Origin: Candidatus Thorarchaeota archaeon
GTDB taxonomy: Archaea; Asgardarchaeota; Thorarchaeia; Thorarchaeales; Thorarchaeaceae
Direction of reading: 5' to 3'
Assembly (NCBI GenBank): GCA_046482545.1
Contig: JAWOEX010000039.1
Coordinates: 32,001 to 96,000, forward strand
DNA: 64,000 bases
Shown here one piece after another: positions 11,716 to 23,324 of the stretch (position 1 is its first letter; each line of letters starts with the position of its first letter). The notes under the pieces are model-generated. The model was not told the origin of the DNA and made no database searches. It was given only the letters and a program-made list of their open reading frames with translations. Made by a program: the position numbers and the translations under genes.

Positions 11716-12795
11716 GTGGATATAGGATTGACAAAATGTACAATTTCGTACACAACGACTGATGGAGTTTCTGAGAGAGCCACTATTGAAAATGGTTCTA
11801 TTGACTTACGAAAAAAATCCATCGAGACCATCAATTTGACAGGATTTGAAGGCTGTGATGCTCTGAAGAGGTTAAAACTCGATGGTAACAAACTCACCAA
11901 GATTAATCTGGAACCCTTGAGTACTTGTCCGAACCTCCGAGTCCTTGACATATCGAAGAACAGCTTCACCGAGTTGGATATTTCTCCTCTTGAGAAATGT
12001 GAAGAACTCGAGAAGTTGAACATTGGAACGAACATCATCGAAGAAATTAATCTCTCGGTTTTGGAAAATTGCGAAAATCTTCGCAGTTTGAGATTGTTCA
12101 ACAATAAACTAAGAGAAATCAACCTAGAAGCTCTTTCCAATTGCTCACATTTGACTCGCCTTGAGCTGGCCAACAATTTGCTCGGTAGCTTGGATTTGTC
12201 GCCGCTTGACAATTGCGAGGAAATCGAGCAACTGAATGTGATGTATAATGAACTGCGTCACCTTGATCTTAGCCCACTCTCCGCTGCAAAAGGACTGCGT
12301 TTTCTGTATTTGCATCACAACTATCTCGAATCGCTTGATTTGAGCCCTCTTCGGAACTGCCCTGAATTACACATTCTCCGACTCGGAGGCAACGAACTAC
12401 AGGAAATCGATCTTGCACCCCTATCTAAATCTAAGAATCTGGTTAGAATAGGTATTGCAATGAATAACCTCCGGGAAATTGATTTGACGCCCCTAGCTGA
12501 GTGTTCGGCTCTTTATAGTTTGGACATTTCACGCAACAAACTAACCGAGATAGACCTTGAGCCTCTTTCCAACTGCAAGAACCTTGAGGAACTCTATATT
12601 TACAGCCATCACGAGCAGGAAGAAAATAGGTTTGAAGAAATTGATCTGACGCCTCTTTTTGAATGCCCAGAGCTCATAGACATGATTCTGCCAGAGAAGG
12701 CCGAACTTGTGGCAGATAAGGAGTATAAGGATCATGAAGATATACCCACAGCAATGGACAGGCTAAAAGAAGACGCCAGGATTACTTGGATCTAA
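11716..12795 (+). CDS. Leucine-rich repeat protein (about 12 x 24-aa repeats)
   Basis: Repeat LxxLxLxxNxLxxIDLxPLxxCxx. Confidence 0.95.
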   Translation: MDIGLTKCTISYTTTDGVSERATIENGSIDLRKKSIETINLTGFEGCDALKRLKLDGNKLTKINLEPLSTCPNLRVLDISKNSFTELDISPLEKCEELEKLNIGTNIIEEINLSVLENCENLRSLRLFNNKLREINLEALSNCSHLTRLELANNLLGSLDLSPLDNCEEIEQLNVMYNELRHLDLSPLSAAKGLRFLYLHHNYLESLDLSPLRNCPELHILRLGGNELQEIDLAPLSKSKNLVRIGIAMNNLREIDLTPLAECSALYSLDISRNKLTEIDLEPLSNCKNLEELYIYSHHEQEENRFEEIDLTPLFECPELIDMILPEKAELVADKEYKDHEDIPTAMDRLKEDARITWI

Positions 12796-13231: not shown

Positions 13232-13879
13232 ATGGTCATCGAGATGGATGAAGAAACAAGGAAACAAGTTGAAGAGAGATTCCAAACATTGGATGGGAAG
13301 GTTTCGATGCACCTGTTTGTCGAGAGCCAAGATTGTTTGTACTGTAGTGATGCCAAGGAACTCGCCAGCAAGATAGCTGAACTCTCAGAGAAAATCGAAC
13401 TGACTGAACATGATTTGCCCGAAGCTAATGATGTTGCTTCTGAAATGGGAATTCGTTTCACTCCTGCTATTGTTCTACATGGTAAAGAGGAGTACAACCT
13501 ACGTTTCTATGGTATACCCGCAGGACATGAATTTGGTGCCCTCATTTCTGATATAGTTGACGTGTCAACGGAATCAGTTCAGCTACCCGAAGAAATGATC
13601 GCAGATATCGAAGCAATAAATCAGAAGGTGCACATTCAGGTTTTCACAACACCGCAGTGTCCCTATTGCCCCAACGTGGTTCGTTTAGCGCATCAAGCGG
13701 CCATAATCAACCTGAAGATAGAAAGTGATATGATTGAGGCGCTCGAATTCAAGGATTTGGCTCAGCGATACGAAGTATTCGGTGTTCCCAAAACAATATT
13801 CAATGAGGTTTTGTCTGCGGAGGGGAATATCACACCAGAAGAATTTGTTGACAAGCTGTACGAAGCTACTGAAACATGA
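13232..13879 (+). CDS. Protein disulfide oxidoreductase (PDO, AhpF-N-like double thioredoxin)
   Basis: CLYC and CPYC motifs; RFYGIPAGHEF. Confidence 0.92.
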   Translation: MVIEMDEETRKQVEERFQTLDGKVSMHLFVESQDCLYCSDAKELASKIAELSEKIELTEHDLPEANDVASEMGIRFTPAIVLHGKEEYNLRFYGIPAGHEFGALISDIVDVSTESVQLPEEMIADIEAINQKVHIQVFTTPQCPYCPNVVRLAHQAAIINLKIESDMIEALEFKDLAQRYEVFGVPKTIFNEVLSAEGNITPEEFVDKLYEATET

Positions 13880-13981
13880 TTACGGGAATCTACAGAACTG
13901 AGTCTAAATTGAATAGGATAGAAACACAAAATTGCAAATATTCTCCAAGTCCGCAGCGAGTATCACCACACTCTGCAACGA

Positions 13982-14929
13982 CTATTCCTTGTGCTGACGG
14001 GCATAGATGAATTCATTCTCATTGACATAGAGGTAGGCTTGGTATGCTGCATGTACCCCTTCGGCCACTCCCGTGATGGCCTGCTTGAAATCCGTATCGA
14101 CAACATCACCTGCTGCTAAAACAGCCTCAACATTAGTTTCGCTGTTTCTGTTGATAGCAATCTCGCCCTTGTCGTTAACTTCGACACCTACTTTCTTCGC
14201 AAGTTCGGAATTGGGAATACCTCCGATAGCAACGAAGACACCCTCGACATCGAGTGTGTCAGAACCACCGTAGGGATTATCTAGTTTCACCCCTGATACG
14301 CTCATTTCTCCTAAAATCTCTGTCACATTCGTGTTCGTAACCACTTCTATCTTATCTGACTTGGCAACTCTTTGGGCGTTAATAGGCTCAGGGCGAATCT
14401 TGTCCCCTCTATAAATCATATAGACCTTCCTGCAGTAGTTAGTTAACAGGAGAGCTTCTTTTGCAGCACTATCGCTACCACCAACCACCGCTACGTCCTT
14501 ATCTCGGAAAATCGGACCATCACATAGAGCGCAGTAGCTCACGCCTCTGTTTCGAAACTCGTCGTGCCCCTGAACATCCAGTTCCCTATCTTCCATTCCT
14601 GTAGCAATGAGCACAGTCCGAGACAAATACGTCTTTGATTTGGTCACAAGATAGAAACATCCTTCTTCATACCTAAATAGATCAACTACTCTAGCAGTTT
14701 CTAGATGGACAGGATAGTCGAGCGCATGTTCCTTCAGTTTCTCAGCAAGTTCCGTACCTGTCAATTCTATGAATCCGGGGTAGTTGGAAACCTCATCAGT
14801 GAGAGTAATCGTACCCCCGTCTTCATCTCCGACGACAACTGTACGCATCTCAAGCCGGGCACCGTACATAGCCGCACTATATCCTGTGACTCCAGATCCA
14901 ATGACTGCGAAGTCGTACAAGCAAGTCAC
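13982..14929 (-). CDS. trxB: Thioredoxin reductase
   Basis: GVSYCALCDG, VGGSDSA, AAGDV, KQAITGVAEG. Confidence 0.92.
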   Translation of the reverse strand: MTCLYDFAVIGSGVTGYSAAMYGARLEMRTVVVGDEDGGTITLTDEVSNYPGFIELTGTELAEKLKEHALDYPVHLETARVVDLFRYEEGCFYLVTKSKTYLSRTVLIATGMEDRELDVQGHDEFRNRGVSYCALCDGPIFRDKDVAVVGGSDSAAKEALLLTNYCRKVYMIYRGDKIRPEPINAQRVAKSDKIEVVTNTNVTEILGEMSVSGVKLDNPYGGSDTLDVEGVFVAIGGIPNSELAKKVGVEVNDKGEIAINRNSETNVEAVLAAGDVVDTDFKQAITGVAEGVHAAYQAYLYVNENEFIYARQHKE

Positions 14930-15177
14930 CTGTTGCTTTCTAGGGCTTTGCTTAGTCGTCGCTTGACACGGTTGTCAAAGCCGACGAAAATGTCTCCTTC
15001 AACAATGCAAGCAGGAACTGCACCTTGTCCAGTTCTCCCAACAAGCTCATCAAAGAGTTCTGGCTCGATAACGACATTTTTCTCCGTGTAGCTTACACCC
15101 CGGCTCTCCAGAAAATCTTTCAACTTGTCAGAATTTGGATCTTCAGACGCTGTGTATACTTCGACTTTCATGTTCAA
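14926..15177 (-). CDS. NrdH/glutaredoxin-like protein lacking CxxC
   Basis: KVEVYT, FLESRGVSYTEKNV, TGQGAVP, IFVGFD signatures; 4-nt overlap with trxB. Confidence 0.8.
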   Translation of the reverse strand: MNMKVEVYTASEDPNSDKLKDFLESRGVSYTEKNVVIEPELFDELVGRTGQGAVPACIVEGDIFVGFDNRVKRRLSKALESNR

Positions 15178-15266
15178 TCGTGTTTTTTCTCAGTTTTGAT
15201 AAGAAAAAGTTTTGCTAAATGCCCTTGCTCATTCTGGGACGTAGCGAAGAATATTAAGGATGATAC

Positions 15267-15776
15267 TTGATTATTATGAAAGCGGAAGGTGTGAAACCCG
15301 TGGATGAGAAAGAAACGTTACACTTCATAGATGACCAGATAAAATTGGAAGAGAGGATAATCGAAATAGTTGAAGAAACAACTTCAAAGCTCGGAAATGC
15401 CTTTGTCAAGCAGATGCTGCTCGGAATCGCCCAAGATTCAAAGAAACATGCAGCACTCTTGACTTCACTGAGGAATGCAGTTGAAGGTCCTACCCCATTC
15501 ATCAGTGAAGAAGAACGTGATGACATTGCTGACGGAATAGAAAAACACATCGAACTAGAAGCAAAAGCAATCGAAACATACGACCAACTAACGAAGGAAA
15601 GTGATGATCAGCAGGTGAAGTCCATAGCATCAATGATCCATGAAGATGAAATTCGACATCACAGCTTGCTGAAGGAACTCCACAAAACCATGATAGAGCC
15701 AGAGACACTTACTGAAGATATGATTTGGGACGCGTTCTGGAAGGATAGCCCGTGGCACGGAAGCCCTGGCGGTTGA
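15267..15776 (+). CDS. Ferritin-like (rubrerythrin-type di-iron) protein
   Basis: DSKKH and DEIRHH ligands in a duplicated helix pair. Confidence 0.85.
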   Translation: MIIMKAEGVKPVDEKETLHFIDDQIKLEERIIEIVEETTSKLGNAFVKQMLLGIAQDSKKHAALLTSLRNAVEGPTPFISEEERDDIADGIEKHIELEAKAIETYDQLTKESDDQQVKSIASMIHEDEIRHHSLLKELHKTMIEPETLTEDMIWDAFWKDSPWHGSPGG

Positions 15777-15828: not shown

Positions 15829-16371
15829 CTAATCGAGAAATTTGTCCGCGATTTTCGTGAATTCATAATCAAGTGACTCGAACCCCACCCCGGTCTTTGC
15901 AGATATCAGTTGTGTCGCCATTTCGTATGGTGCTGCCATCCGATTCATTTCGGAGATGATATCGTCGAACGGTGGTGTAAGCAAGTCAATCTTGTTGCCA
16001 ACAACGATGAAGCGCTCTCCGTCTCCATTTTCTAGATCGAATCTGCTGTTCTCACTAATGGCGGGAACCCAATAATGGAAGAGATTATCCAAGGTGGCTA
16101 GCTTACTAACATCGAAGAAAAGAAGCCCGATTTTGGCCCCTCTAATCATGCTCTTCATGGTTTCGATGAATCGTCGCTGACCGCCAAAATCCCACAGAGA
16201 GAGTGTGGCATCACGACCACTTGGCAGAGTTACTTTCTTGGTATCGAAACTTGCTCCTACTGTGGTCTTAAGCATCTCAGGATCGGGAAATGTGCCGGTG
16301 GTCCACCGGGTAGTGAAAGAAGTCTTACCGCATTCAGTATCTCCTAGCACTACGGCCTTCATTATTGCCAT
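15829..16371 (-). CDS. Ras-superfamily (Rab-like) small GTPase
   Basis: G1 GDTECGKT, G2 TVG, G3 WDFGGQ, G4 NKID, G5 SAK; no C-terminal prenylation cysteine. Confidence 0.95.
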   Translation of the reverse strand: MAIMKAVVLGDTECGKTSFTTRWTTGTFPDPEMLKTTVGASFDTKKVTLPSGRDATLSLWDFGGQRRFIETMKSMIRGAKIGLLFFDVSKLATLDNLFHYWVPAISENSRFDLENGDGERFIVVGNKIDLLTPPFDDIISEMNRMAAPYEMATQLISAKTGVGFESLDYEFTKIADKFLD

Positions 16372-16429
16372 GTTAGCACCTTTGTCTGAATGGTCAGATG
16401 CTCGATATATAATTGATTCTGAGTTGAAT

Positions 16430-17764
16430 TCATTCAGTTAGGAATGAGAACCGTCGGGGGCTGCTTTGGTAAACCATTATTGCTGCAACAAGGAGCAAAA
16501 TCAATGTGACAATTAAGGGGAGATTATCTGAGTATTCTATAACAAAGGCGGTTGCAAGCGTCCCCGTCATGAGACCGGTGAAATTAATCGCAGCACTCGT
16601 GTTACCTGACTTGCGGAGGGTTCGTACCACATTTACGTAACCAACAACGCCTACAGCGATGAAAGCGAGCAAAACGGGAAACAGATTATCGTACACCCAT
16701 CTCCCGTTTTTCACATATTCGTTTCCCAAGATAATCATGATTGACATGAATACAAGTACAGCTCTTCTCGCATATTTCCTGAATTCTGCGGACATTAATG
16801 GCTGAAAGGCTATCAGAACGTATGCGCCTGCCGCAAGCACACCAATTACCCATTCTAGATAAAGGAGATTCCAATCGTTGTAGCCGTAAGTCTGGAATAT
16901 TCCAAAGTAAATAGTGTGGTTTGCAATCAGTAGCGCGAGTCCAATCAGAAGAGCTGAGATATAACCCGGAATCTTGGCTCCCGTTTCCATAAACTCCTCA
17001 ACAAAGAAATCGGTTGCGCCAATAGCGGACAGCGATGCGATGAGAGCGAAAATAGTAAACAACCATATTTCATAATCACCCGCTAGGAATGCCGCACCAA
17101 ATATGGACATGCCGATAGTAATTGCCAAGAAGAAAATGAGCAAAGTAATCATTCTTCTCCAAGGTTTTAGCATGGCACTAAGAATGGCAGCATCTATCAG
17201 TGCAGGAAGATAGATAATCAAAAAGTACTCAGGATTTCGTTGTACAATTCCTGTGATTATGGAGAACCAAGAAAACAAGAAAGCACCAAGCAATACTAAC
17301 GTTCCCGCGGAGAACGGCGAGGGTGAATCCCATAGTAGGTAGCATGATAACACTAATGCGACAGCTGCAGAAACATATAGTGCAAACCCTAAGATAGGGG
17401 ATATCTCTGTAGGGCTCGTGAGAGCAACCAAAATTGCCCCGCCGGAAGCTATGACACCAGTTGCATATGTTGCATAATGAATCTTTTTTTCATCAGTAAT
17501 CACCTGCACCAGAGAGACAATGAAGAATACAAAAAAGAGAATAACCCATGGCCTGGTGGCAATGGTTCCGGTATAGAATGCCGAAGTAATAGCCATTCCG
17601 GCAAGAGAGACTCCGGCACCCCCAAACAATATGAGAGCGTATAACGTGTCGGAGCTAACTTGTTCTCTTATACTTAGAACTGATCGGCCATAGATAATCA
17701 GTGAGGAGCCAAGAAATACAGATGTGGCAAGTGCTGCGATGAAAGTTGCAACTGTGAAATCCAT
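16430..17764 (-). CDS. Polytopic membrane protein (about 15 TM), paralog B
   Basis: About 15 hydrophobic segments; collinear similarity to the upstream gene. Confidence 0.85.
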   Translation of the reverse strand: MDFTVATFIAALATSVFLGSSLIIYGRSVLSIREQVSSDTLYALILFGGAGVSLAGMAITSAFYTGTIATRPWVILFFVFFIVSLVQVITDEKKIHYATYATGVIASGGAILVALTSPTEISPILGFALYVSAAVALVLSCYLLWDSPSPFSAGTLVLLGAFLFSWFSIITGIVQRNPEYFLIIYLPALIDAAILSAMLKPWRRMITLLIFFLAITIGMSIFGAAFLAGDYEIWLFTIFALIASLSAIGATDFFVEEFMETGAKIPGYISALLIGLALLIANHTIYFGIFQTYGYNDWNLLYLEWVIGVLAAGAYVLIAFQPLMSAEFRKYARRAVLVFMSIMIILGNEYVKNGRWVYDNLFPVLLAFIAVGVVGYVNVVRTLRKSGNTSAAINFTGLMTGTLATAFVIEYSDNLPLIVTLILLLVAAIMVYQSSPRRFSFLTE

Positions 17765-17765
17765 T

Positions 17766-19103
17766 CTACACGACCTCCTTAAGACTTAGCCCTTTTGGAC
17801 GATAGGGACTTGCTACCACTAGCATGAGTCCAGGAATGACAAGGAGAATCAGTGTAAGAGGGAACGGAAAACGGTCGGAAAACATTGCGACAATACCAAC
17901 GCTCAGAGATGCAAAACTGAAAAGAATAAACCGTGAAGCCGCACCTCCAGAACCTGCTCGTCTTAATTTGTATGCAACCACAAAGAAACCGATAATACCT
18001 GCGGCTATGAGAAATGACAATGGTATGTAAAGCGGAGAAAGCTGATATCGGCCGTCGGATACAAATGGATGGCCGAGAGCAAGCAACGCAGTCCCACCAA
18101 AAATTAAACCGTCAATAATCAGATTTGTTATTCGTTCACTGTATAGCAGGGAGATAGAAGAAAGAGTAAACGAAATCACCGCAACCACTCCGATAATCCA
18201 GTCAACATATAGGAGATTGAGATCCCATGCCCCTTGTTCAACCGCAATAGACCAGGCATTCGAATGAGTTATCGCCAGCAGTGCAACAGAAATGAGAGTA
18301 AACGAGACATATAGCGGGGTTCTTGTGCCTGTATCGACCGCCTGCTTGATGAAATAGTTCAATGGAAAGACACATGCAAGACCCGCGAATACTGCACAAA
18401 TAACGTAAGGCCATATGAAGATATCACCAGCAATAATCGCAGGTATGATAAGAGCAATCGCTGTCACAATTCCCAACAAAGTGAGAAACACTGTGACAAT
18501 AAGACGCCAGGGCTTTAGAATCGTTCCTAGGACGGCTGCAGTAAGAAGAAGAGGTGCAGACTCCATCATGAAATATTCCGGATAAGCAGGAACATCGCCC
18601 AAGTTTGCAGACAATAAGGTCCCCACAAAGATGATAATCAAGACAACTATAGAGCCGGTGAACGGTGATGGACTTTCCTTCAGAAGATATATGCCAAGTG
18701 CGGCAGCCGAAACTAGCAAAGAGCCAAGACCCGCAATGAGAGCGATAGGAGTCAGTTCTCTTTGTGTGCGAAGCAAAGTCTCTACAATCACTGTGAATGC
18801 AACAAGAAATGCTGCACTCACTCCAATCCTGAGGGTTGTTAAGGATTCAGCGTACAAGTATAGCTCTGAAGTGATCAGCGAACTGAGGAATGCTGTGAGC
18901 CACACGGGAACTAACGCAGGATAGACTATTGCTTGTATAGGGACTAAACCTAAGAAGACTCCACTTATTCCGAAAGCTACTAACGATCTTTTCGTGTTCT
19001 GGGTAAGCGTATGATAAATAGAACGCAGCCGATTTCCAAAAACTATAACTGAAGCAATAAGGACTGCAAAGGAAACAGCCCCACTAAGATACAATGTCAG
19101 CAT
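17766..19103 (-). CDS. Polytopic membrane protein (about 15 TM), paralog A (start refined to ATG 19103)
   Basis: Start at 19103 removes the overlap with the upstream gene, has an AGGCGGTG SD and gives 445 aa versus 444 aa for the paralog. Confidence 0.85.
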   Translation of the reverse strand: MLTLYLSGAVSFAVLIASVIVFGNRLRSIYHTLTQNTKRSLVAFGISGVFLGLVPIQAIVYPALVPVWLTAFLSSLITSELYLYAESLTTLRIGVSAAFLVAFTVIVETLLRTQRELTPIALIAGLGSLLVSAAALGIYLLKESPSPFTGSIVVLIIIFVGTLLSANLGDVPAYPEYFMMESAPLLLTAAVLGTILKPWRLIVTVFLTLLGIVTAIALIIPAIIAGDIFIWPYVICAVFAGLACVFPLNYFIKQAVDTGTRTPLYVSFTLISVALLAITHSNAWSIAVEQGAWDLNLLYVDWIIGVVAVISFTLSSISLLYSERITNLIIDGLIFGGTALLALGHPFVSDGRYQLSPLYIPLSFLIAAGIIGFFVVAYKLRRAGSGGAASRFILFSFASLSVGIVAMFSDRFPFPLTLILLVIPGLMLVVASPYRPKGLSLKEVV

Positions 19104-19128
19104 GAAATCCAAATCAAACACCGCCTTC

Positions 19129-19503
19129 CTAGCGCCACAAATCTCCGATTTCTTTTCCTCTCTTTTGAACAACCCGTTCAATGCTATCTTCAATATCATT
19201 GACTGAAACCGAATCACTTGACATGACGGCTTTTAGTGCATCTTCAGTCTCCCGTTCTGTATCGCCCTCACAGATGATTACATAATCATCAATTTGACAA
19301 TACCCAACTACTCCCCCTTCAGACTTCATGAACATCGGTGCGGACGGATTGGAGGAATTGTTCCTTTCGAGTGCATGAGATACAAGTTGGATTATCCCTG
19401 TCAGCTTCGCTATCCGTTCTTCGTCCGGATCTGTGGCAGGATGAACAACTTCAAAATCCATCTGATCCAAATCTACCCGAGCCATCAATCGTAGGACCAT
19501 CAT
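19129..19503 (-). CDS. Longin-like domain protein
   Basis: 124 aa with beta-beta-alpha-beta-beta-beta-alpha-alpha pattern; GTPase-operon context. Confidence 0.6.
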   Translation of the reverse strand: MMVLRLMARVDLDQMDFEVVHPATDPDEERIAKLTGIIQLVSHALERNNSSNPSAPMFMKSEGGVVGYCQIDDYVIICEGDTERETEDALKAVMSSDSVSVNDIEDSIERVVQKRGKEIGDLWR

Positions 19504-19790
19504 TTAGTTCCCCCAAAAGTTTTCTTAACCCATTCAATTTCAGATGGTTTTTCTTGTCCGGTTGTCTTGGATGTACCGGATCTCACTGGAACCATAACGT
19601 CCCGGACACCTAGTTTGCCACCGTTCATGTAAAGAGTTACAAGAAGCTCATGCCCTTCAGAGCAGTTGACAATCATAGTAGGCGATCTCCCCTCCTCTGT
19701 TATCCGCTTCTTGACATCCTCAGCTTCGGCTTCTTCCATTTCTACTGTAGCAGGTTTTTTACACTCGGGACATTGGAAAACGATATGCAG
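19500..19790 (-). CDS. Zinc-ribbon protein (CPEC...CSEGH), probably with a non-canonical start (CTG 19790)
   Basis: Frame upstream of the tracked ATG 19739 is open and encodes HIVFQCPECKK; GAGGAG SD upstream; ATGA overlap with the longin gene. Confidence 0.6.
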   Translation of the reverse strand: MHIVFQCPECKKPATVEMEEAEAEDVKKRITEEGRSPTMIVNCSEGHELLVTLYMNGGKLGVRDVMVPVRSGTSKTTGQEKPSEIEWVKKTFGGTK

Positions 19791-19890: not shown

Positions 19891-20901
19891 ATGTCCTCAG
19901 GTATTTTCGATACAATAGTAATTGGCGGTGGTCCAGCTGGATGTTCGGCAGGATTGCATCTAGCATATCACGACAGATCAGTGCTCATCCTAGACCGGGG
20001 CACATCACCCATGCATTTCCATACTAACAGCATCATGAATTTTGCTTCTGAGGGGACCTACCATGAAGGAAGGTCCTTGCTCAGAAAGCTACAGGGGGTT
20101 GCTACCTCAGCCGGTGCGGAGTACAAGGCAGGAAATGTAGTTGAAGTCTCCGGAGAGTATCCGAACTTCACAGTTAGGACAAAACCCAGCTACAGAACCC
20201 GTAATGAGAATGAATATCATTCAAAAACCCTGATTTTTGCAACTGGTACTGCCCGCAAGCATCCCAAAGTTGATGGAAGATGGAAAAAGTGGCTGCCTGT
20301 CGCCAACGTAGGAAACGCCGCTTTCTATTGTCCTGATTGTGAAGCTCCTTTGTGCAAAGATAAGGATGTACTTGTAGTAAATACAGGAACCACAGGAAGC
20401 GCGTTACATGTGGCACATGCAATAACGAGGTTTACTGACAAAGTCAGGATACTGATGACAGAGGACGCCTATATGCCATTCGAGGAGCAGGATTTGTCCA
20501 AACTGGATGATAGCCCGTTTGAGTGGACGCATGGAAAAATCAAAGAGATGGACTTCCCCCTTCCCGGCAATGTTCAGCGGATAGTTCTTGAGAGTGGTGA
20601 GACACTCCGCTCAGAGGTCTTCTTCGTAGCTCACGTGGCAGAGCCAAGATCAGAGCTTGCAGTTGAGCTTGGTGTGGAAGTTGGTGAGAACGGAAATATC
20701 CTGACAGATAAACGGGGAAAAACAAACATGGAAGGCGTTTGGGCTGCGGGTGATGTACGGCCGATTACTCAGCAAGTATCCATGGCAACGGGCACAGGAA
20801 ACTATGCAGCTTTGATGATTAACCAATTTCTAGGGAATGAATTCGAGAAAGAAGAGCAATTCGATCATCCAGATTGCAGAGAAATTGTTCATCTCTACTA
20901 G
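19891..20901 (+). CDS. TrxB-like FAD-dependent disulfide oxidoreductase
   Basis: IGGGPAG, FATG, YCPDC, WAAGDV. Confidence 0.85.
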   Translation: MSSGIFDTIVIGGGPAGCSAGLHLAYHDRSVLILDRGTSPMHFHTNSIMNFASEGTYHEGRSLLRKLQGVATSAGAEYKAGNVVEVSGEYPNFTVRTKPSYRTRNENEYHSKTLIFATGTARKHPKVDGRWKKWLPVANVGNAAFYCPDCEAPLCKDKDVLVVNTGTTGSALHVAHAITRFTDKVRILMTEDAYMPFEEQDLSKLDDSPFEWTHGKIKEMDFPLPGNVQRIVLESGETLRSEVFFVAHVAEPRSELAVELGVEVGENGNILTDKRGKTNMEGVWAAGDVRPITQQVSMATGTGNYAALMINQFLGNEFEKEEQFDHPDCREIVHLY

Positions 20902-20918: not shown

Positions 20919-22229
20919 ATGCCAGATGGTGAAGACAGACCTAATGTCGTAATCTTCACCAGTCATGATTCAGGAACGCAATTCGGTTGCTATGGAGCCC
21001 CTGTAGAAACCCCCGAAGTTGATGAGGTAGCAAAGGAAGGAGTGGTGTTCACAAACAACTTCTGTACAGCTCCACAATGCACCCCGTCACGGGGTAGCAT
21101 CATGACTGGAAAATATCCTCATAGTAATGGTCTGATGGGTCTGGTCAACTACGGCTGGAAGCTCCCACCCAAAAACACGACTTTGCCTGATATCTTCAAG
21201 AAAGCGGGTTATTCAACTCATCTCATAGGGCTGCAGCATGAGACAAATGACCCGTGTAAACTTGGATATGAAGAAGTGAGTAATCGCACAGATTTTCCGT
21301 ATCTGGCCCAAACTGTGGTCCCTAAGGCTGAAGATTTCTTCGAAGAAATGAGAGATGCGAAAAAACCATTCATGGCTTCAGTAGGTGTTTTTGAAACCCA
21401 CAGACCGTTTCCCCACTTCGAGAAGGATGATGGCCTTGCTAATCTCCCATCATTCCTCCTTTCTCACCCAAGAATGAAGAGGGATTTCACCAGATTCAAG
21501 AAATCTTTGAGGGCACTTGATGAAGCAGTTGGTGACGTGTGGAAATCTATTGAAGAGAATGACTTGAAGAATGATACGCTGTTCATATTTACTGTTGATC
21601 ATGGCATTGCATTCCCACGAGCAAAATGCACGTTGTATGACCCAGGCATCAGAACAGCTCTCATCATGGTTTGGCCTGAAAAGCTTCGAGCTGGGCGTAG
21701 AATTGAACAGATGGTATCCAACGTTGACATCCTTCCAACTCTTTGTGAGCTTCTCGATGTGCCAAGGCCTGAAGAAGTCGAGGGGAAGAGCTACACATCG
21801 TTGGTTCTTGACCAGGAATCTGCAGGACGTGAGTTCATCCACGCCGAGCTGACATACCACGACATTGGCTATAATCCAATGCGGGGCATCCGCAGCAAAC
21901 GGTACAAGTACATCAAGAATCTTGAGGAACTTCCGTTTCTATTTGAAATGCCCGATGATATCCGCACCTCAGATTCTGGAGAAGCTTTCCTTGAAGCTTT
22001 TGGGAAAGACAAGTACAACCAACCTCGTCCGGAAGAAGAGCTCTATGATCTTGCCGAAGATCCTCTCGAAAGAAATAATCTTGCAGATAATCCTGAATAC
22101 GCAGAGACCAAACAACGGCTCAAAAAGGAAACTCTCGATTGGATGAAGCGAACTGGTGATCCTGTTCTTGACGGAAAAATAGAAGCAGACGAAAATAAGC
22201 AAGCTTCTCTGTTCTACGAGGTTATCTAG
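20919..22229 (+). CDS. Cys-type (formylglycine) sulfatase
   Basis: CTPSRGSIMTG signature, TVDHG, ELYDLAEDPLE. Confidence 0.95.
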   Translation: MPDGEDRPNVVIFTSHDSGTQFGCYGAPVETPEVDEVAKEGVVFTNNFCTAPQCTPSRGSIMTGKYPHSNGLMGLVNYGWKLPPKNTTLPDIFKKAGYSTHLIGLQHETNDPCKLGYEEVSNRTDFPYLAQTVVPKAEDFFEEMRDAKKPFMASVGVFETHRPFPHFEKDDGLANLPSFLLSHPRMKRDFTRFKKSLRALDEAVGDVWKSIEENDLKNDTLFIFTVDHGIAFPRAKCTLYDPGIRTALIMVWPEKLRAGRRIEQMVSNVDILPTLCELLDVPRPEEVEGKSYTSLVLDQESAGREFIHAELTYHDIGYNPMRGIRSKRYKYIKNLEELPFLFEMPDDIRTSDSGEAFLEAFGKDKYNQPRPEEELYDLAEDPLERNNLADNPEYAETKQRLKKETLDWMKRTGDPVLDGKIEADENKQASLFYEVI

Positions 22230-22241
22230 GGAGTCAGAAAA

Positions 22242-23324
22242 TTGTGGCCTTTTCAATTACTGGTTAAACCAGTGTCTGGAAGCTGCAATCTCAGGTGTGA
22301 TTACTGTTTCTATCTTGATGTCCCTAACCGCTGCTATCCCGATGCAAAGGAAACTGTGATGTCAGATCATATCCTTCGCAAATTGGTACGAAGTTACTTG
22401 AAATTAGGTTTCAGCACTAGCGTATTCTCCTGGCAAGGCGGCGAACCAACGCTTGCTGGACTTGATTTCTTCAAAAAAGCAGTAAGACTTGAGACTGAGT
22501 TTGGAAACAAGGGTCAGAGAATCGGTAATGCGTTACAGACCAATGGCACTAGAATTGATCGGGGGTGGGCGGAGTTCTTGGCGAAGTACAGATTTCTCGT
22601 AGGACTGAGTATTGATGGTCCAAAAGACATTCATGATTCAGCAAGAGGCGAAGGTTCATGGAGTAAAGCAATAGATTGCGCCGATTTGCTCAGGCAATAC
22701 GGAATAAAATTCAATATTCTCACGGTTGTGCATCAGGGCAATGTAACAAAAGCTCGCGAAATCTATCAATTTCATAGGCAACAGGATTTCAAGAATCTTC
22801 AATTCATTCCAGCAGTCGATGTCAATTCCGAGACCGGGAAACTGAAGAAGCATTCGATTAAATCAAAAGATTATGGGAAATTCCTCTGCAACCTATTTGA
22901 CCAGTGGATGGAATCCGGGGACAAGAATAGTGTAAGTATCCGCCTGTTCGATGCGATATTTGAGAATCTAGCCTCTACCAAGGCAAGTTCACTATGTACA
23001 GTATCAGAGCAATGTGGTAGGTATCTTGTTGTTGAGCACAACGGCGATATCTACTCCTGCGATTTTTTCGTCTATCCCGAGCACCTGCTTGGTAATCTAA
23101 ATGACACTACATGGAAAGAATTGTTTGAGCGGAGAAGCAATTTTGAGGAGCAAAAAGTTGCTTCAGAAAAAGCATGTGGGACTTGTCCCTGGTGGGATCT
23201 GTGTCACGGTGGCTGTCCCAAGAATAGACTCAGCAGCAATCGTACGCACCTTTGTCAAGGCTATAGAATGTTCTTTTCACATATCCAAAATTGGTTTGAA
23301 ACTATAGGACATTCCCTCGATTAA
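22242..23324 (+). CDS. Anaerobic sulfatase maturase (radical SAM/SPASM)
   Basis: CNLRCDYC, WQGGEP, SPASM cysteines (YSCDFF, CGTC, CHGGCP); adjacent to the sulfatase. Confidence 0.95.
   Translation: MWPFQLLVKPVSGSCNLRCDYCFYLDVPNRCYPDAKETVMSDHILRKLVRSYLKLGFSTSVFSWQGGEPTLAGLDFFKKAVRLETEFGNKGQRIGNALQTNGTRIDRGWAEFLAKYRFLVGLSIDGPKDIHDSARGEGSWSKAIDCADLLRQYGIKFNILTVVHQGNVTKAREIYQFHRQQDFKNLQFIPAVDVNSETGKLKKHSIKSKDYGKFLCNLFDQWMESGDKNSVSIRLFDAIFENLASTKASSLCTVSEQCGRYLVVEHNGDIYSCDFFVYPEHLLGNLNDTTWKELFERRSNFEEQKVASEKACGTCPWWDLCHGGCPKNRLSSNRTHLCQGYRMFFSHIQNWFETIGHSLD

Follow-up and report, generated by a model that had tools for sequence, protein, structure and literature searches.

The closest known analogue of the gene set described here, and the nearest one organised as an operon, is the actinobacterial conservon (CvnA–CvnD; PMC4316618, citing Komatsu et al. 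2006). Its four genes, arranged as an operon, specify a membrane-bound histidine kinase, a protein of the roadblock type, a small protein of unknown role, and a GTPase resembling MglA, and its discoverers likened it to a G-protein-coupled system. Here, we describe a comparably organised module in a stretch of 64,000 nucleotides (the window) from a Candidatus Thorarchaeota archaeon (GenBank assembly GCA_046482545.1, contig JAWOEX010000039.1, positions 32,001 to 96,000, forward strand). Five tightly packed genes on its minus strand, at 15829–19790, encode a small Zn-ribbon protein, a longin-fold protein, two paralogous membrane proteins with about 15 transmembrane (TM) helices each (paralogs A and B), and a Rab-like small GTPase.

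The conservon and the present module share a membrane protein, a protein of the roadblock/longin superfamily, a small protein, and a Ras-superfamily GTPase, as well as the occurrence of several copies per genome; we take this as analogous organisation and not as membership. In place of CvnA, a histidine kinase that carries HAMP and ATPase domains, the module has a double seven-helix protein lacking any soluble domain. The counterpart of CvnB, which belongs to the Roadblock/MglB proteins, shows the longin order of strands and helices, and that of the MglA-like CvnD is a Rab-like GTPase with the catalytic Gln (DFGGQ). A Zn-ribbon protein stands where the conservon has CvnC, and the conservon is bacterial, whereas this module is Asgard archaeal. 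The features that define a conservon were looked for and not found, there being no kinase domain in the membrane proteins and no MglA-type GTPase. By analogy, the module would share the logic of a membrane sensor, a roadblock or longin protein, and a small GTPase, with every part drawn from a different family than its counterpart in the conservon.

We propose, with a probability of roughly 0.55, that the double seven-helix protein controls a cognate Rab-like GTPase via a longin platform, and that it serves as the membrane sensor or scaffold of a Thorarchaeota-specific four-part module. The case rests on the layout and shared history of the genes, on the fold and conserved cytoplasmic face of the membrane proteins, and on the nature of their partners.

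The module genes are packed like those of an operon, all on the same strand and either overlapping or 1–58 bases apart. The first gene encodes the Zn-ribbon protein (~96 aa; 19500–19790, minus strand), and its stop is overlapped by the start of the ORF (open reading frame) for the longin-fold protein (P0009, 124 aa; 19129–19503, minus strand). Next come paralog A, the "first" copy (17766–19112, minus strand), a gap of one base, paralog B, the "second" copy (P0001, 444 aa; 16430–17764, minus strand), a gap of 58 bases, and the last gene of the module, which encodes the GTPase (P0010, 180 aa; 15829–16371, minus strand).

Profiles of the four parts were used to scan 36 loci from public assemblies and from representative genomes of 14 further genera of the window's family; two of these loci belong to the window's own genome and 34 are related loci. 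As far as the ends of the loci permit, the order Zn-ribbon, longin, one or two membrane proteins, and GTPase is found in every one, in three layouts: a single membrane protein gene, two such genes (as in the window), or the whole four-gene module repeated in tandem (e.g., L003 and L021). The genes that flank the module vary between distant loci, with pyruvate:ferredoxin oxidoreductase and ion transporters in some and redox genes in others. An earlier note on this DNA, made from the sequence alone, had supposed that the membrane proteins must signal through partner proteins, and the co-encoding of the longin and the Rab-like GTPase in every related locus lends this contextual support. Some genomes carry two complete tandem modules from two different clades (L003, 4297–9706; L021, L014, L019, and L027), and the first module of L027 apparently has no GTPase gene of its own.

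In a maximum-likelihood tree of the membrane proteins, the "second" copies, including paralog B, form one clade (SH-like approximate likelihood ratio test, 99), the "first" copies form two clades, the single copies form two more, and paralog A groups with its "first"-copy orthologs. The A/B pair of the window is therefore an old duplication kept across genera, and such long retention fits either non-redundant roles or a heteromer. The trees of the longin, GTPase, and Zn-ribbon proteins reproduce four clades of the membrane protein tree with 3–4 label changes (the minimum being 3), counts that should be read with the relatedness of the loci in mind since it makes the agreement look better than it is; two of these clades are present side by side, in tandem, in the same genomes. 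These gene trees are supportive of the four parts having diverged together, as modules.

The two membrane proteins were described in the earlier note as collinear paralogs, and BLASTP bears this out with 32% identity and 53% positives over 432 columns (E 1e-55) and with the motif pairs it quoted in register (SPSPF, LKPWR, PEYF, D/E-W, DGRY/NGRW, and FSD..P). Paralog A was called as an ORF at 17766–19217 (minus strand), and its start is uncertain. The ATG at 19103 gives a 445-aa protein, while the 477-aa version in the public record overlaps the longin gene and is probably too long. Upstream of the ATG at 19103 the frame reads LDFMLTL, and because the N-terminal consensus of the family (MDF.L.L) fits the frame there, the start is probably the TTG at 19112, which gives 448 aa; a purine-rich stretch lies a few bases upstream of this TTG.

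No Pfam or NCBIfam model matches either paralog, with Pfam scanned to E up to 1. Across the Pfam, NCBIfam, and PADLOC scans a single row came back, SLATT_6 at E 0.077, which we took as chance, and a role in defence was set aside after the PADLOC scan gave no matches. Searched exhaustively with HMMER, 1.84 billion representative proteins yielded 45 clusters, nearly all of 440–480 aa, so that the family is a small one, and the named matches are from Thorarchaeota. Among 301 sampled genomes of the phylum, the family is present in 37 of the 76 from the window's own family and, as a weak match, in one from a sister family; it was found in none of the 224 genomes from the other 28 Asgard families searched. 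The figures for conservation, topology, and profiles given below refer to 43 members. When these 43 were scanned with Pfam, only scattered single matches appeared, with no family consistent across members, and a profile built from them found no sequence in the PDB at E up to 10.

The architecture of these proteins is best seen in paralog B, for which an AlphaFold2 model from the 43-sequence alignment has a pLDDT (predicted local distance difference test) of 93.3 and a pTM (predicted template modelling score) of 0.91. The model consists of 15 long helices with very short loops, namely seven (residues 3–196), one (203–228), and seven (231–434). A hydropathy scan gives ~15 hydrophobic segments in each paralog, so that the count of about 15 helices made by eye from the letters was a good one. 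No soluble domain was found in the paralogs by Pfam or NCBIfam, nor is there one in the model, just as had been noted before.

The model supports an architecture of two seven-helix bundles shaped like G-protein-coupled receptors (GPCRs) or rhodopsins, joined by a linker helix. With VIA-align, which does not depend on Foldseek, residues 1–204 align helix-for-helix with GPCR 7TM domains; both halves of the protein match such domains, and the best GPCR superpositions are with adhesion and class C receptors. The 50 best VIA rows are nearly all 7TM receptors or rhodopsins. A global Foldseek search with the same model gave no match at E 0.001 or better. Paralog B also has an independent model in ESM Atlas, though a weaker one, and a structure search there finds HisKA_7TM, 7TMR-DISM, 7tm_3, and HlyIII for one half or the other.

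The bundles share the GPCR fold, helix order, and topology (N-terminus out, C-terminus in), but there is no sequence similarity (4–13% identity), and neither paralog has a Pfam match to 7tm_1, 7tm_2, 7tm_3, or Frizzled at E up to 1. GPCRs also differ in that here two bundles lie in one chain, without extracellular domains and without a heterotrimeric G protein, the associated GTPase being small, Rab-like, and accompanied by a longin partner. HisKA_7TM and 7TMR-DISM_7TM, as prokaryotic seven-helix sensory bundles, offer another comparison, and the resemblance is moderate, with TM-scores of 0.46–0.60 for both halves in the ESM Atlas structure search. Those domains, however, occur singly and fused to kinase, cyclase, or phosphatase outputs, whereas the proteins described here join one bundle to another and carry no cytoplasmic output domain, and among the 43 members Pfam finds neither profile.

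A reading as type I rhodopsins was tried and rejected. There is no Lys in helix 7 (182–196) or helix 15 (417–434) of paralog B, and a rhodopsin-type retinal Schiff base is therefore excluded; the nearby K200 lies at the cytoplasmic junction of helices 7 and 8, where the family consensus has Arg (LRPWR).

Two bundles in one chain invite the idea of an internal duplication, which is possible. The internal repeat that one might look for under the earlier proposal did not appear, since hhalign found no collinear 7+7 repeat between helices 1–7 and 9–15, or with other partitions of the chain. An off-register profile similarity does exist between residues 15–98 and 366–441 (helices 1–3 and 13–15), with an hhalign probability of 28–41% and E of about 3e-4 to 1e-3, against E 0.08–0.16 for reversed-sequence controls. 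This similarity may be a compositional effect, and we did not accept it as evidence of duplication.

Proteins with this many helices are readily taken for transporters, and one could suppose that a solute path runs within or between the bundles and that the GTPase and longin regulate or report transport, as in the "transceptor" SLC38A9 with Ragulator-Rag. We consider this unlikely. The earlier note had named an MFS, APC, or GT-C fold as a result that would speak against it, and such a fold appears unlikely: no such row is found among the 50 best from VIA, and the MFS rows from Foldseek are poor (TM-scores 0.15–0.21, root-mean-square deviation (rmsd) ~19 Å, E 0.01 or worse). Foldseek transporter rows as a whole superpose poorly (TM-scores 0.15–0.28, rmsd 17–23 Å), the oxidase rows are poor too, and no transporter family was matched by sequence. 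A match to LYCHOS falls on its GPCR domain (chain residues 373–716) and not on its transporter domain, and the best conservation of the family lies in the cytoplasmic loops rather than along a central pathway.

A membrane-embedded enzyme, such as a PAQR or alkaline-ceramidase-like 7TM hydrolase or a lipid-modifying enzyme, with the GTPase nearby for regulation or by coincidence, must also be weighed, as residues 1–193 resemble the HlyIII (PAQR) fold with a TM-score of 0.59 by target and there is a nearly invariant His within the membrane. This is H283, which lies in the ANHTI/ITHSN motif noted early for its conserved polar intramembrane residues and is indeed kept in 91% of the members, as is T40. 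A PAQR-type zinc site, however, needs several conserved metal-binding residues, and beyond this single His no such set was seen. None of the 43 members has a Pfam HlyIII match at E up to 1, and the strict four-gene module with its co-divergence argues for a protein complex, so that we regard an enzyme as highly improbable.

The orientation of the chain can be read from its charges. Lys and Arg residues average 13.1 in the inner set of alternating loops and 2.8 in the outer set, with a difference of at least 5 in every member, and the positive-inside rule thus places the N-terminus outside and the C-terminus inside. Because helix 8 carries the chain back to the outer side, the two bundles have the same orientation. 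The proposal of two 7TM bundles joined by an inversion helix consequently holds for the 7+1+7 arrangement, which the model and the fold searches bear out, but not for the inverting role of the linker, as the second bundle is not inverted. In SWEET transporters, the TM4 linker likewise keeps a parallel orientation.

Conservation is highest on the cytoplasmic side, at 2.27 bits in the cytoplasmic loops as compared with 2.0 in the TM helices and 1.78 in the outer loops, and it falls to its lowest, 1.0 bit, in the first bundle's outer loops. It peaks at SPS (147–149, between helices 5 and 6), LKPW (198–202, helices 7/8), the helix 9/10 loop, G387 (helices 13/14), and P436. The invariant G387 belongs to the basic loop LRKSG/LRRAG, which had been placed correctly between helices 13 (358–385) and 14 (389–410). 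Conserved cytoplasmic loops are what one would expect of a conserved interface with a cytoplasmic partner, and they fit that interpretation.

One candidate for such a partner is the GTPase, which matches Pfam Ras at E 2.5e-22 (79.6 bits, cut-off 21.6) and Roc at E 1e-19, and has Ypt7/Rab7, Rab28, and "Thorarchaeota Rab" (7ezb) as its nearest solved relatives. It is of the Ras/Rab family, not a G-alpha, and its match to Pfam Gtr1_RagA is weak and sub-threshold (E 0.003). The G1–G5 motifs are intact and kept across orthologs (GDTECGKT, DFGGQ with the catalytic Gln, NKID, and SAK), and a prenylation-type C-terminal Cys is absent from the tail in all six aligned orthologs, including the window's own. 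The genome has 21 Ras-family matches, among which the module GTPase ranks 13th by score, with the lower scorers.

A GTPase without a lipid-anchor motif needs a membrane partner, and one could stop there, taking the 15-TM proteins as passive anchors or recruitment platforms that place the longin and GTPase for remodelling or trafficking without sensing anything, in the manner of SR-beta/SRX or of Yip/PRA1-type Rab receptors. The conserved cytoplasmic face suits docking, the outer loops are variable, and the longin model resembles the longin domains of trafficking proteins (SRX, TRAPP, and coat adaptors). A simple anchor, however, has no need of 15 helices, of two conserved 7TM bundles, or of the conserved H283 and T40, and the keeping of two old paralogs side by side suggests more than tethering; on balance, we find this explanation rather improbable.

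The longin protein has no Pfam match, and its assignment depends on structure. The model (pLDDT 80.7) is a beta-beta-alpha-beta-beta-beta-alpha-alpha domain, which has the longin order of strands and helices and superposes on known longin domains, including those of SRX, TRAPP, and coat adaptors. Its 50 best VIA rows are all of the longin/roadblock type, one of them being the related profilin, and among the Foldseek rows shown nearly all belong to the longin/roadblock superfamily. The gene is single-copy in the genome.

This is also the fold of eukaryotic guanine nucleotide exchange factors (GEFs) for Rabs, including Mon1-Ccz1, DENN, and BLOC-3. Longin and roadblock dimers bind small GTPases as platforms and act as GEFs or as GTPase-activating proteins (GAPs), as summarised in PMC10933270, and P0009 is on this basis a candidate GEF/GAP platform for the GTPase of the module. 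The pairing of a longin with a Rab-like GTPase recalls the eukaryotic longin Rab GEFs (Mon1-Ccz1 with Rab7, DENN with Rab35, BLOC-3, and TRAPP). Both these and the Asgard longin/roadblock proteins differ from the present case, in which a single longin domain of 124 aa shares an operon with the GTPase and a dedicated polytopic membrane protein; in strain MK-D1, small GTPase genes generally lie outside operons with roadblock or longin genes (PMC10933270).

The Zn-ribbon protein carries a CxxC...CxxGH motif and matches Pfam Zn_ribbon_Brz at E 3e-5 with 25 bits, just under the cut-off of 27.9, which its ortholog in L005 exceeds with 29.5 bits. In Halobacterium, the transcription of bacterio-opsin is regulated by Brz, a small zinc-finger protein (PMC2253796). 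Since the match covers a short stretch and is borderline, we offer the likeness as a lead only.

In the Zn-ribbon gene, the first in-frame ATG comes only past the CxxC half of the zinc site, which is therefore missing from the 79-aa ORF as called, and the codon at the start position (19788–19790, minus strand) is CTG in all four loci of the genus (the window, L002, L009, and L010) and ATG in other genera. This suggests a conserved non-canonical CTG start.

Taken with the co-encoding and co-divergence of the genes, the conserved cytoplasmic face, the longin, the anchor-less GTPase, and the Zn-ribbon protein make a membrane complex the most economical inference. In such a complex, the double-7TM protein, probably an A/B heteromer where there are two paralogs, would sense a membrane or extracellular cue or mark a site on the membrane, and its conserved cytoplasmic loops would hold the soluble longin and the GTPase. 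The longin would offer the platform on which the GTPase exchanges or hydrolyses its nucleotide, and the double-7TM protein would thereby set the nucleotide state of the GTPase at the membrane. As effector or output, the Brz-like Zn-ribbon protein is one candidate, although the output could instead be the GTPase itself.

Two observations weigh against this proposal. The 15-TM family is confined to one archaeal family and is thus lineage-specific and not demonstrably related to eukaryotic receptors, and the outer loops, being short and weakly conserved, speak against a classical ligand site on the extracellular side, at least for the first bundle. A bolder version, in which the module is a self-contained receptor-to-small-GTPase system with a tandem GPCR-shaped receptor (a heteromer here), a longin exchange factor, a Rab-like switch, and a Zn-ribbon output, can be put forward only tentatively.

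Control of a small GTPase at a membrane by a polytopic protein has a further parallel in SLC38A9-Ragulator-Rag, where roadblock/longin-superfamily scaffolds are likewise involved. The GTPases of that system are Rag heterodimers, and SLC38A9 has a different membrane fold, being an amino-acid transporter.

The one sister-family genome with a weak match (G108) encodes a distant 15-TM homolog of 457 aa (L037, 5008–9834; hhalign probability 81%, E 1.2e-5), which is convergent to a pair of genes for a Zn-ribbon protein and a Ras-like GTPase; no longin was detected there with the profile. On the strand of the homolog, two weakly B-box/zinc-finger-like proteins (266 and 419 aa) are encoded upstream and an unassigned 138-aa ORF lies downstream.

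The wider neighbourhood in the window includes a redox cluster around the module (13232–15776 and 19891–20901), with genes for a thioredoxin-like protein, a thioredoxin reductase (TIGR01292 match of 308 bits, under the equivalog cut-off), a ferritin/rubrerythrin-like protein, and a second pyridine-nucleotide disulphide oxidoreductase. In L001 and L002, too, the module has redox neighbours of this kind (the two oxidoreductases and thioredoxin-like proteins), and the neighbours in L003 and L005 are largely different. On the plus strand, 20919–23324 holds a sulfatase gene followed by a radical-SAM/SPASM gene, a pair that also adjoins the module in L002 and is presumably akin to an anaerobic sulfatase with its maturase. 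A leucine-rich-repeat protein of 359 aa (Pfam LRR_8, E 8.5e-31) is encoded at 11716–12795, also on the plus strand.

We found neither a 7+1+7 protein nor the module described in the literature searched. Asgard "7TM proteins" and, among structural clusters, one labelled "class C GPCR" are mentioned without further detail in a 2026 preprint, and these may overlap with the present family.

Asgard archaea possess many Rab-, Arf-, and Rag-like GTPases together with roadblock and longin proteins, and how regulators pair with GTPases and reach membranes is largely unknown. The module offers a cognate set of membrane protein, longin, GTPase, and small Zn protein that is strictly co-encoded and co-diverging and is thus open to direct expression and testing. 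If control of the GTPase by the double-7TM protein is borne out, this would be the first archaeal pathway from a 7TM receptor to a small GTPase, and a rare natural instance of two 7TM bundles in one chain. Should the module prove to be a self-contained receptor system, it would be a prokaryotic counterpart of the logic of GPCRs with G proteins and of longin Rab GEFs, in the archaeal group closest to eukaryotes. The module bears on the origin of membrane-localised GTPase switching before eukaryotes, although its restriction to a single archaeal family makes parallel invention likelier than direct ancestry.

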